Source: a virus
UHGV virus genome: UHGV-2199615
Direction: 5' to 3' (one strand)
Length of the DNA stretch: 22,709 nt
Each line of letters begins with the position of its first letter. Position 1 is the stretch's first letter. This document shows positions 672 through 3,973 of this stretch, one piece after another. The notes beneath the pieces were generated by a model. That model saw only the letters and a list, made by a program, of their open reading frames with translations. It had not been told where the DNA came from and did no database searches. A program made the position numbers and the translations under genes.

Positions 672-694
672 AAAAAAACCCAGCCGAAGCTGGG
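672..694 (-). terminator. Rho-independent terminator downstream of ant
   Basis: Minus-strand RNA reads CCCAGC-UUCG-GCUGGG followed by a U7 run (plus strand a7-cccagc-cgaa-gctggg). Sits between ant stop (714) and tailspike start (613). Confidence 0.6.
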
Positions 695-713
695 TCGTTG
701 CGTTGGTTATCTG

Positions 714-1616
714 TCAGTAATTATGTACTGAAGGAGGTAATTCTTTATTCTTAAGTCTCATCCATGCGGAAAGATTCGTTGGTCCGTCTGGCTCATTGAT
801 ATCAACATCTCGTGTGTGATTGATTAAAACGTCTCTCGCCATATCGATAATACGGGAGAACTCATAACCGCAGTCATGACATCTGCCGGAATAGTTCGAT
901 TGAATTTGTTTTAGCGCCGGATACAGTTCGCGGAATAATGCCTGTGAGCGGTTGGCATAATCCCATAGCCATACAAGGCTGTTTGCTTCTTTTGCAGAAA
1001 GCTCGTTGGTTTTCTTCTCTTGTTTGCCGATGAACTCACCTTCAAGCACTACCCTGTGGATGTACTCTACTGCTTGTGGTATCTGAGATGCATCAAGCTC
1101 TTCAATACTTTCCACATTGAAACGCTGATGAATCATTGCATAAGCTTCTGGGTACATTAGATGCTTTTTGCTGACTAGCATATTTACAGCATCACGAAGC
1201 GGAGTCCTGTCATCAACAGATGTTTTCTTCCGTGCATTTGCTGCCTCTCCCTTTGTCCAGTAGTCATGCAGCACAGTAAAGCATTCTTCCTGGTACTGAA
1301 TCAGTTTATCGCGGATGTCAGCACGAACTTTCTCAGGGTTGATGCTGAACAGCCATCCATTTAACTTCTTCAAAGGAAGGCAGAGTAGCTTACGAAGCTT
1401 ACCATCAGCGGCAACCATGTTCATATGAACACAGTTGAATTTGCTAATCTGCTTCATGAGTTTTGTTTGCTGCGTTGACCAGCTCATTCCGAGGTTTTCA
1501 ACGATTGGCTTCATCGCAACATATGCAACTCCGGCAGCCATGGCGGTGATAATTTGCTGACCGTTGAATGGCACGTAAGAGGTGTTCACTGCTTCTAAAA
1601 TTGCTATACTATTCAT
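714..1616 (-). CDS. ant: Antirepressor Ant (P22 immI-type)
   Basis: ORF 714..1682; start chosen at internal Met ([21 protein letters not shown]...), giving 300 aa, with GGAGA about 10 nt upstream. Sits downstream of an arc-like gene and upstream of tailspike, as in P22 immI. Confidence 0.8.
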
Positions 1617-1697
1617 GTTGGTTTTTCTCCACGGATTTACCGACAACCGAAGCCCTGACTGTTCCAGCAGTTGGGGCTTCACTGTTTTGATTTCTTT
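1617..1697 (+). ncRNA. Candidate sar-like antisense RNA complementary to the ant ribosome-binding site (about 70-80 nt)
   Basis: Plus-strand -10-like TATACT at 1605-1610 (a TTCACT -35-like hexamer lies only 14 nt upstream, so the promoter is weak evidence). Plus-strand hairpin gaagccctgactg(1649-1661)/cagttggggcttc(1668-1680), 13 bp with two G-U pairs, followed by a U-rich tract (actgttttgatttcttt). A transcript would be antisense to the ant SD and start codon. Inferred by analogy with P22 sar. Confidence 0.35.
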
Positions 1698-1848
1698 GCC
1701 GCATCAAGCATCACTTCTGAAAACGTGCGCTTGCCACTGAATACTCTTTCTCTTCTCAATTTTTCGTTCGTGCCAAATGATTCGCCATGAACAAAATTTG
1801 GTCTTAAAATGGTAATCGCAATCTCTTTGACTACTGCATCCAAGCGAA

Positions 1849-2001
1849 TCACACCGTTACCCCCTCTCTCTTCAGGCTGTCTATCAGGCGCTTGATAACC
1901 TCTGAGTTAAACGACCTGCACTCTTCCTTTGCCCTGCTACCGATAGCATCCTTTAACGACTGCGGCATCCTTACCAAAATCTTACTTATTTCTTTCTCCA
2001 T
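1849..2001 (-). CDS. arc: Arc-like ribbon-helix-helix repressor
   Basis: ORF 1849..2037; start chosen at internal Met (MEKEISKILVRMPQSLKDAIGSRAKEECRSFNSEVIKRLIDSLKREGVTV, 50 aa) preceded by GGAGGG. RHH signature (RMP...R..A...RS.NSE) and size similar to P22 Arc (53 aa). Divergent from the mnt-like gene. Confidence 0.7.
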   Translation of the reverse strand: MEKEISKILVRMPQSLKDAIGSRAKEECRSFNSEVIKRLIDSLKREGVTV

Positions 2002-2115
2002 GTTACCCTCCACGCAAACAACTCTTTTCGAATACAAAAGATAGCAAAGTGAGTATATCTAGTCAAAATTTTTTTGCATACACTTTGCTATCAAATTGAA
2101 TACCAAAGGTGTTAT
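2002..2115. promoter_or_regulatory. Divergent immI promoter/operator region (Pant-like leftward, Pmnt-like rightward)
   Basis: 114-bp AT-rich spacer between divergent arc-like and mnt-like genes. Perfect 12-bp inverted repeat gatagcaaagtg (2040-2051) and cactttgctatc (2081-2092), 29 bp apart. Confidence 0.5.
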
Positions 2116-2364
2116 ATGGCAAAGGGTGTGTCAATTTCTCCAACTACGGTAAGAATCCCTGAATCTTTACGCGAGGCTCTTGCTGTCAGAGCATCAAAAA
2201 ATGGTCGCTCTGTTAACTCCGAGATCGTCATGATTTTGCAAGCCGCGATTGATGAAGATAGGTCGCCAAAGTCAGTTGAGTCATTTGCTCAGCAAGAAGC
2301 TGATAAATTCAAAGAGGCGCTACTTGAGACGCTAAAGACCATGTATGCTAAGGATGAAAAATAA
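2116..2364 (+). CDS. mnt: Mnt-like ribbon-helix-helix repressor
   Basis: ORF 2074..2364; start chosen at internal Met (MAKGVSISPTTVRIPESLREALAVRASKNGRSVNSEIVMILQAAI...TLKTMYAKDEK, 82 aa). Resembles P22 Mnt (83 aa) in the N-terminal RHH and C-terminal helix, and is divergent from arc-ant. Confidence 0.7.
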   Translation: MAKGVSISPTTVRIPESLREALAVRASKNGRSVNSEIVMILQAAIDEDRSPKSVESFAQQEADKFKEALLETLKTMYAKDEK

Positions 2365-2900
2365 TGCTGCACACAATTCATTTCTTATGCCCTGTTAACA
2401 CTGCCACTGTTGGGCAACTTCAGAACCACTGTCTCACCGCATTATCTCAAGGCGCAACTGAATTAAATATCCATATATCAAGTCAGGGAGGGGAAACTGC
2501 TGCTGGCTTTACTGCGTATAACTTTCTTAAGTCACTCCCTGTTACCGTTAGAACTCACAACATAAGCAATGTTGAATCCATAGCTAATATCGTTTTCCTG
2601 GCTGGCTCAGAACGTTTCGCAAACCCATTATCAAGATTCCTGTTACATCCTCTATTATGGTGCTTTGCCTCCCCAGCCGCCGACCATGCCAGATTGAGAG
2701 AGTACGGGAAATGCCTCGATAACGATCTTGATCGCTTCGTTGAGACGTTCAATATCGACATCGGAACCCATATTAGGTGGGCATCCCTGATAGCAGACTC
2801 GACCATTTTGGATGCTAACAAGGCTCTTGAGCATGGCATAATTAATTCCATAAAAACTGCAAGGCTGGCATCCAATCAGGCAAACTGGTGGGTTGTTTGA
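2364..2900 (+). CDS. ClpP/S14-fold (Clp-protease-like) protein of unknown role, translationally coupled to mnt
   Basis: ATG at 2364 overlaps the mnt TAA (taATG). 178 aa with HISSQGGETAAGFTAYNFL and NVESIANIVFLAGSERFANPLSRFLLHP, which align by eye with the ClpP motifs NSPGG..AG..IYD and GQAASMGAFLLTAGAKGKR...SRVMIHQP. Candidate Ser, His and Asp positions are present. Confidence 0.6.
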   Translation: MLHTIHFLCPVNTATVGQLQNHCLTALSQGATELNIHISSQGGETAAGFTAYNFLKSLPVTVRTHNISNVESIANIVFLAGSERFANPLSRFLLHPLLWCFASPAADHARLREYGKCLDNDLDRFVETFNIDIGTHIRWASLIADSTILDANKALEHGIINSIKTARLASNQANWWVV

Positions 2901-2925: not shown

Positions 2926-2950
2926 AAAAAACCCACCTGACGGTGGGTTT
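2926..2950 (-). terminator. Intrinsic terminator between convergent genes (strong on minus strand, weak on plus)
   Basis: Plus strand a6-cccacc-tgac-ggtggg-ttt. The minus-strand RNA gets a 6-bp GC stem followed by U6, immediately after the stop of the 149-aa ORF. Confidence 0.6.
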
Positions 2951-3398
2951 AGTCAAACATAGTGTTTCTAAAGTCTCTCGCATACCCTGCTAACACTCTC
3001 ATTCTATTATGATTGTTAGCAGACATGTGAGCTACAGGATGAAAAAGAGCAATCAATGAATACCTGTTCTCATCAAAAAGATTTTGTGCATAAACGAGAG
3101 CGGTATTGGATGTTTTATGCCACTGCAACTTTTGCGGTGTGCTGATATCTGTGCCATTTTTTATTGGCTCAAATTTATTTTCACCAATTGCTAAATGAAG
3201 GTGCATAAGGCCTGCATCTTCAATATCAGGAGGTCGATGATAAGAGGTGTCTCTGCCAAAATAGCTGGGCAACGTTCCCGTAGACTTGTAGATGATAAAA
3301 TCATCTACAAGTGTTTGTTTTAAATCAGGAAACTCAACAAAAACCGGGGAGAAAAAATAGTCAAAACTATCCTGATTATATTCCACGGTTACTTGCAT
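2949..3398 (-). CDS. Putative toxin, YafO-like (ribosome-dependent mRNA interferase family) by recalled motif similarity
   Basis: 149 aa; GAGG SD 7 nt upstream of ATG at 3398; starts 8 nt after the stop of the upstream 188-aa ORF. Segments DFIIYKSTGTLPSYFGRD, LMHLHLAIGEN and QKLQWHKTSNTALVYAQNLFDE resemble E. coli YafO as I recall it (FISYKRDGVLPDIFGRD, VAHIHLANENN, QLRQWSRTNDTAHLVYCQGAFDE). Confidence 0.6.
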   Translation of the reverse strand: MQVTVEYNQDSFDYFFSPVFVEFPDLKQTLVDDFIIYKSTGTLPSYFGRDTSYHRPPDIEDAGLMHLHLAIGENKFEPIKNGTDISTPQKLQWHKTSNTALVYAQNLFDENRYSLIALFHPVAHMSANNHNRMRVLAGYARDFRNTMFD

Positions 3399-3406
3399 GT
3401 TTTACC

Positions 3407-3973
3407 TCAGTGGAAGTTACCAGAGTGAAACACACGAGTCCCGTGCTCAGCAAGCGCACGCAAACCAGCCATATCTACGGAACTATCAAAAACAACCGGA
3501 ACACATGAGCGTTGTTTAATAAGACTATTCAGGTTGGTTACGGCAGATCTGGCATCAGCAACAACGATATAGATATCTCTTGCGATCTCTTTAAAATCAG
3601 CAGAAGCTTCTTTGAATACCGATTTCATTGCCCCTTCAAGTCCTCTCAATTGATGCTCTATCAATCGAGACTTTTCTGGTTCAATGATAGACAACACATT
3701 GTCTACATTCTCATCGGTAGCGTTTGCAAGAACACGATAAGCGTATTTCAGCATTCGAGACAATTCTTTAATCGAAGACACCGCCTCATGAAGCTCATCA
3801 TTAGCCCGTTCACTGCTGAATGAGGATTGATGGTAAGCGTGCTGAACGTTATCAGTAACAACCACCTCACAACTGAACGCAGAAGCTTGCTGTAATAGCA
3901 AACCTATTGCGACTCCAGCTTTGGCAGCGTTCAAGCTAAACATTTCATCAATCCCATTAGTCTCATTGCTCAT
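3407..3973 (-). CDS. Hypothetical protein (188 aa), first gene of a two-gene operon; candidate antitoxin or partner of the YafO-like protein
   Basis: ORF 3407..4003; start chosen at internal Met (MSNETNGIDEMF...) preceded by strong SD AAGGAGG. No motif I recognise, and no obvious RHH/HTH. Stop TGA lies 8 nt before the downstream ATG. Confidence 0.6.
   Translation of the reverse strand: MSNETNGIDEMFSLNAAKAGVAIGLLLQQASAFSCEVVVTDNVQHAYHQSSFSSERANDELHEAVSSIKELSRMLKYAYRVLANATDENVDNVLSIIEPEKSRLIEHQLRGLEGAMKSVFKEASADFKEIARDIYIVVADARSAVTNLNSLIKQRSCVPVVFDSSVDMAGLRALAEHGTRVFHSGNFH

Follow-up and report, generated by a model that had tools for sequence, protein, structure and literature searches.

Does the DNA opposite the start of the antirepressor gene ant encode an antisense RNA of the kind known as sar in phage P22, or does it only resemble one? 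The question was raised for a 22,709-nt stretch of viral DNA (UHGV-2199615; hereafter, the window), in which a sar-like RNA had been proposed on account of a −10-like hexamer and a hairpin followed by a U-rich tract. The sar RNA of P22 was the subject of Liao et al. (1987), Wu et al. (1987), and Schaefer and McClure (1997), as cited in PMC2629481. It binds the ant mRNA's ribosome-binding site and blocks the synthesis of Ant (PMC7968456, PMC10732415, PMC2629481), acting beside the protein repressors Mnt and Arc (PMC7968456, PMC10732415, PMC2629481, PMC11016777), and small-RNA reads at sar have been found in P22-infected cells (PMC13397905). For the RNA ends and the mechanism discussed below, we relied on the GenBank annotation of P22 and epsilon34 and on secondary papers. 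The features of the locus are collected in Table 1.

Table 1. Features of the sar/ant locus and its surroundings, with positions in the window
Feature	Position	Strand	Remarks
Terminator-like hairpin and T-run downstream of ant	677..696	−	From the terminator scan; epsilon34 has an annotated terminator at the corresponding place
ant (antirepressor), 300 aa	714..1616	−	Pfam P22_AR_N 4e-45, P22_AR_C 2e-28; 84% identity to P22 Ant
Psar −35 region, GTGTTC	1582..1587	+	Maps to the first hexamer of the annotated 29-bp Psar box (P22 NC_002371, epsilon34); predicted activity
Psar extended −10, TGCTATACT	1602..1610	+	Overlaps ant codons 2-5 on the opposite strand
ant start codon, ATG	1614..1616	−	The 300-aa ORF from here aligns 1-300 with P22 Ant
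sar antisense RNA	1617..1688	+	5′ end G1617 from homology; 3′ end expected in T-run 1685-1688; ~69-72 nt
sar hairpin I	1617..1644	+	6-bp outer stem GUUGGU/ACCGAC; anti-SD UCUCC in loop; MFE fold
ant Shine-Dalgarno, GGAGA	1626..1630	−	9 nt before ATG; covered by sar; read from the sequence
sar hairpin II, rho-independent terminator stem	1649..1680	+	14 bp, 3 G·U pairs, loop UCCA
57-aa ORF, GTG start (ORF57)	1679..1852	−	Between arc and sar/ant; phrog_17642 (function unassigned) 1.3e-43, full length
T-rich tail, ACTGTTTTGATTTCTTT	1681..1697	+	Non-homologous to the P22 tail AACTTTACGCG (alignment)
arc-like ribbon-helix-helix repressor, 50 aa	1849..2001	−	Pfam Arc 5e-12; 39% identity to P22 Arc
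Pant-like promoter, TTGACT-17-TATCTT with TG	2038..2066	−	From the promoter scan; would drive arc, ORF57, and ant
mnt-like ribbon-helix-helix repressor, 82 aa	2116..2364	+	Pfam Arc 9.5e-11, phrog_2685 1.3e-31

Identity of the RNA opposite ant

When the whole window was scanned with the Rfam covariance models, the sole match was RF00262 (sar RNA), at 1617-1683 on the plus strand. The match takes in the whole model (positions 1-68 of 68), and its score of 83.9 bits (E 1.4e-16) lies above the family's gathering score, which is 43; a covariance model that we built here gives 96.5 bits on 1617-1688. The match begins at the base that follows the complement of the ant start codon, runs antisense to the ant leader, and covers the Shine-Dalgarno (SD) sequence, and the same arrangement is found in P22. 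A Megablast comparison with phage records found that the DNA from 1400 to 1681 is 98.6% identical to that of Salmonella phage epsilon34 and about 88% identical to that of P22. In the P22 record (NC_002371), sar is entered at the corresponding positions as an antisense RNA, “regulator of ant gene”, together with its promoter and terminator; it is annotated as a 70-nt RNA whose first base adjoins the ant coding sequence. In the epsilon34 record (NC_011976), the matching bases form a misc_RNA feature named “sar: small antisense regulatory RNA”, and the promoter there is said to be “located by similarity with P22 Psar”.

Aligned with the P22 RNA, as the original prediction had suggested, the first 64 nt of the window sar are identical at 60 positions, and the corresponding figure for epsilon34 is 62 of 64. 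Of the four substitutions relative to P22, one replaces a hairpin I G·U pair by G-C in the window, one lies in the hairpin I loop, and two lie in the terminator loop. With a full-length Rfam match and near-identity to P22 and epsilon34 from the promoter through the terminator stem, the term “sar-like” proved too modest, and the RNA of the window is better called a sar orthologue. It is very likely that the segment from 1617 to about 1688 on the plus strand is the sar of a prophage that is P22-like (Lederbergvirus) and resides in E. coli K1 strains; judged from its sequence, it is thus a feature already known, a sar orthologue that had gone unannotated in the E. coli K1 prophage. Homology and the covariance model decided this identity, which generic scans for promoters and terminators could not have settled by themselves: the sigma-70 −35/−10 scan of the window missed Psar, and the four terminator-like sites found in the window, against 2.1 expected from shuffles, are not significant alone. 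The window sar itself shows sequence orthology, a covarying structure, terminator features specific to one strand, and an immI gene context.

As for the host, chromosomal prophages of E. coli APEC O1, S88, ATCC 11775, and others match the DNA from 1400 to 2400 with 100% identity, and the best full match in a phage is phiv205-1, a Lederbergvirus, with 98.8% identity over the same interval. Neither the APEC O1 annotation (RefSeq NC_008563) nor that of phiv205-1 (GenBank MN340231) contains a sar feature, despite the 83.9-bit Rfam score, and this absence is an annotation gap and not counter-evidence. Downstream of ant, positions 1-613 (−) encode a tailspike N-terminus, in which an endosialidase N-terminal extension (PF12218) comes after the P22 head-binding domain. 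This tailspike suggests a K1-capsule-specific, CUS-3-like prophage, yet its ant/sar module is of the P22/epsilon34 type and not of the CUS-3 type.

Promoter, fold, and terminator

The annotated 29-bp Psar box of P22 and epsilon34 corresponds to positions 1582-1610 of the window. The −10-like TATACT from which the RNA had been proposed is present at 1605-1610 (+), and the TGC just 5′ of it makes it part of an extended −10, TGCTATACT, which is identical in the window, P22, epsilon34, and 611R6. The complement of the ant start codon, CAT, follows at 1614-1616. The original prediction placed it about 7 nt from the −10; the gap is in fact 3 nt, with CAT starting 4 nt after the −10, and 7 nt is instead the distance from the last −10 base to the start at G1617 that homology indicates. 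This 3-nt spacing and the start region are the same in the window, epsilon34, and P22, and, among 121 related loci, 86 have TTGCTATACT at 3 nt from CAT and most others have close variants. The same promoter sequence also encodes Ant codons 2-4 (M-N/K-S-I-A; 1602-1616), so the N-terminus of Ant is tied to the promoter sequence.

The −35 region is less conventional. Its GTGTTC is the variant found in epsilon34 and differs by one base from the GTGTTA of P22; it agrees with TTGACA at two of six positions, one base further off consensus than the P22 hexamer. Such a poor fit, together with the failure of the generic scan to detect the promoter, could be taken to mean that the locus is a sar orthologue by descent that has fallen silent or decayed, with a Psar too weak to make a functional antisense RNA and ant under the control of Mnt and Arc alone, and the window, being a resident prophage, could be degenerating. 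We consider this improbable, given that epsilon34 has the same −35 box, that the extended −10 TGnTATACT is intact, that both hairpins are intact and hairpin I is even slightly stronger than its P22 counterpart owing to the G·U to G-C change, that ant, arc, and mnt are intact, and that DNA of 98.8% identity occurs in an isolated phage, phiv205-1. A functional sar is the reading that we prefer, and by analogy with the P22 work its Psar would be active in this prophage as well.

The fold of the RNA is unusually stable. An 81-nt stretch has a predicted energy of −32.4 kcal/mol, compared with −16.3 ± 2.8 kcal/mol for dinucleotide shuffles (z −5.84), and none of 200 shuffles was as stable. The minimum free energy structure of this stretch is the same as the centroid structure and consists of two hairpins. 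To judge whether these pairings are conserved, homologues were taken from 13 phage records and, with the terminator sequence as bait, from IMG/VR contigs; a covariance model was built from six sequences, and its 93 matches, 55 of them distinct, were aligned. Among the 55 distinct homologues, 98.7% of the cells are standard-paired, and both-sided changes occur in 10 of the 20 pairs. Hairpin I stands out, with compensatory both-sided changes at all six of its pairs; for instance, pair 1 appears as G-C, G-U, U-A, or A-U, and pair 5 as A-U or G-C. The observed covariation score was matched by none of 500 shuffles, and sliding the partner columns left 28 to 48% of the cells paired. The alignment was fitted to the model and most loci were retrieved with the terminator's exact sequence, so that hairpin II is conserved in this set partly by construction; this hairpin is nearly invariant also in the phage records found by whole-region BLAST, and among divergent immI regions no segment is more conserved. 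A plain MAFFT alignment analysed with RNAalifold recovered hairpin II alone and misaligned the divergent hairpin I, a misalignment that the covariance-model alignment solved. The covariation of hairpin I arises because the 5′ half of sar changes along with very different ant leaders, each version still folding.

Hairpin II is the element that would end transcription. It had been described as a 13-bp hairpin; the hairpin is there, at 1649-1680, but its stem is made up of 14 pairs, of which three are G·U, closed by a 4-nt loop, and on the plus strand it is followed by ACTGTTTTGATTTCTTTG. The plus-strand segment has a folding energy of −23.5 kcal/mol (z −5.15) with a T-run after it, whereas in the complement (−19.9 kcal/mol, z −2.65) the G·U pairs become A·C mismatches with internal loops, and GGUUGUCGGUAAAUCC follows, with no U-run. 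The terminator scan calls the sar hairpin on the plus strand only, and its only terminator-like sites on the minus strand, at 696-677 and 657-641, are both downstream of ant. The G·U pairs are conserved, as UG in 53-54 and as GU in 52 of the 55 distinct homologues. These computed differences support the claim, made at the outset, that the hairpin would terminate plus-strand transcription only, and, given that the G·U pairs and the T-run favour only that strand, it can be argued that selection acts on the plus-strand RNA. We also considered a bidirectional terminator that would end the transcription of arc and ORF57, and rejected it because the minus strand has no U-run and its stem is weakened by the A·C mismatches.

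From the 14-bp stem and the plus-strand T-run, the 3′ end is predicted at 1685-1688, for an RNA of about 69-72 nt, which agrees with the 70-80 nt at about 1617-1690 opposite ant that had been proposed. The tail itself, ACUGUUUUGAUUUC, is unrelated to the AACUUUACGCG of P22, and the tail type of the window was found in 8 of 121 related loci.

The immI module and the edge of the terminator

A complete immI module surrounds sar, with mnt-like, arc-like, and ant genes. For ant, a start at the GTG at 1682 (a 322-aa ORF) was rejected in favour of the ATG at 1616, from which P22 Ant aligns over residues 1-300 and which has GGAGA 9 nt upstream; in the P22 entry X01916, a ribosome-binding site is annotated at the place that matches this SD. 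The mnt-like gene is divergent and occupies the place of mnt in P22 and epsilon34. Between arc and mnt, a perfect 12-bp inverted repeat, GATAGCAAAGTG / CACTTTGCTATC (2040-2051 / 2081-2092), brackets the Pant-like promoter; its arms are unlike the P22 operators and are probably operator half-sites for the phage's own Arc and Mnt.

Other genes of this region deserve mention. A 178-aa ClpP-like protein is encoded at 2364-2900 (+) (PF00574, E 2e-11; “ATP-dependent Clp protease proteolytic subunit” in RefSeq), and the start of its gene overlaps the stop of mnt (ATGA), with which it is probably co-transcribed. The gene stands where P22 has other moron genes, an odd place for a protease-like gene, and the pair formed by mnt and the 178-aa gene recurs in EC.P3 and PhiR12_4. 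Inside the ant moron, there is also a YafO-family type II toxin at 2949-3398 (−) (PF13957, E 3e-22), and upstream of it a 188-aa protein at 3407-3973 (−) that belongs to phrog_8416 (function unassigned); the two may be toxin-antitoxin or defence cargo.

It is upstream of sar that the window departs from its relatives. In P22, arc is directly upstream, with its stop 4 nt past the stem, and in epsilon34 a P22-type arc and tail come right after the terminator, with no ORF between. In contrast, the window has an extra ORF, ORF57, and a heterologous arc further upstream. ORF57 has no Pfam match, is absent from P22 and epsilon34, and appears in APEC O1 and phiv205-1 as a hypothetical protein. A small extra ORF between arc and sar, unrelated to this one, is found in other phages too: orf73 in Emek, a 73-aa ORF in 611R6, and an 89-aa ORF in EC.P3.

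The TGA stop of ORF57 shares the final two bases of the sar terminator stem, and this overlap turns out to be common. In a survey of 117 sar loci, whose frequencies are biased because the loci were fished with the terminator sequence, TCA lies over the last two stem bases plus one (window 1679-1682) in 110, and in 62 it serves as the TGA stop for a minus-strand ORF, 40 aa or longer, that lies upstream. The ORFs that end there belong to at least 10 unrelated families, including Arc-like proteins, a 67-aa CxxC protein, 73-aa and 89-aa proteins, and the 57-aa protein of the window. At the same edge, homology to P22 and epsilon34 stops, and the window continues with ACTGTTTTGATTTC; moreover, the CUS-3 record has a “bsq2 boundary sequence” annotated over this region, and mosaicism of the ant moron has been described for epsilon34 (PMC2629481). 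We suggest, tentatively and as a possibility that we rate below even, that the 3′ edge of the terminator is a fixed joint of the ant moron, at which the stem gives the TGA to swapped genes and the swaps replace the sar tail. If this is true, the swap in the window, with its U-run longer than that of P22, could change the termination efficiency, the stability, or the Hfq binding of sar, and thereby shift the set-point of Ant repression.

Such a joint leaves the identity of the feature as sar unchanged. One could go further and regard the hairpin as mainly an element of the DNA or of the sense ant mRNA, that is, a recombination boundary or a stem that stabilises or attenuates the mRNA, in keeping with the exact end of homology at the 3′ edge of the stem, the CUS-3 annotation, the many unrelated ORFs stopping there, and the weaker hairpin that the minus strand also forms (−19.9 kcal/mol), but this is the least probable reading of all, as the three conserved G·U pairs are stable in the plus RNA only, their sense-strand counterparts being A·C mismatches, the stem has its T-run on the plus strand only, the covariation at six of six hairpin I pairs points to selection on RNA structure, a conserved promoter lies upstream at a fixed distance, and a boundary role is compatible with sar function and does not replace it.

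The module is not confined to one type of phage. In Escherichia phage PhiR12_4 (PV340553), ant, sar, arc, mnt, and the ClpP-like gene lie at 302-2314, between lambda-type tail genes (by annotation, tail tip assembly proteins K and L), and this placement indicates that the sar-bearing moron also moves into non-P22-like phages.

Predicted control of Ant synthesis and other phage antisense RNAs

By analogy with P22, sar would act after transcription, on top of the repression that Mnt and Arc exert on ant in immI. RNA polymerase would start at G1617 from Psar, which lies within the first ant codons, and would read away from ant until the 14-bp hairpin and its T-run (1649-1688, with the T-run at 1685-1688) stop transcription. 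The product would be a two-hairpin, untranslated RNA of about 70 nt, whose exact ends, like the start, are those expected from the P22 work. This RNA would be perfectly complementary, over positions −1 to about −70 with GGAGA included, to the leader of the ant mRNA that the Pant-like promoter produces, and its pairing would hide the ribosome-binding site, so that less antirepressor would be made; translational repression of this kind in the present prophage is predicted on the strength of the P22 studies. The original prediction had the RNA covering both the SD and the initiation codon of ant. The first part holds, as the SD and the leader from −1 to about −70 are covered, but a start at G1617 means that the complement of the AUG itself is absent from sar.

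Compared with known systems, the closest likeness is to P22, in which the 5′ end of sar also abuts the ant ATG, the RNA is also antisense to the SD and leader, and the extended −10, the two-hairpin fold, and the terminator stem are the same. The ant gene of epsilon34 is 98.6% identical over the DNA compared, and its sar shares the −35 variant of the window. The terminator hairpin and the extended −10 are also common to CUS-3, Kapi1, Emek, EC.P3, 611R6, and IMG/VR prophage contigs, but these sar variants have another hairpin I and another ant leader, with compensatory changes, whereas the window has the P22-type hairpin I.

Among the other cis-antisense regulators of phage and transposon genes, more distant parallels are found in the OOP RNA of lambda and P22 and in the small CA RNA that controls the antirepressor of phage N15. 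OOP works on the 3′ end of cII, in an RNase III-dependent way. Like sar, OOP and CA RNA are short, derive from phages, and each down-regulate a lysis-lysogeny gene, but, going by their descriptions, their sequences and target sites are unrelated to sar. Both have been cited alongside sar (PMC3134472, PMC10732415).

As sar is a textbook cis-antisense RNA, described in 1987, with its own Rfam family and annotated in P22 and epsilon34, finding it here carries little weight beyond annotation. For annotation, the consequence is that sar could be added to the E. coli K1/ExPEC prophages (APEC O1, S88, ATCC 11775, and others) and to phiv205-1. In addition, the edge of the terminator may be seen as a recurrent recombination joint of the ant moron. 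Finally, the maintenance of promoter and terminator while hairpin I co-evolves with the ant leaders provides independent comparative support for the published two-hairpin structure.
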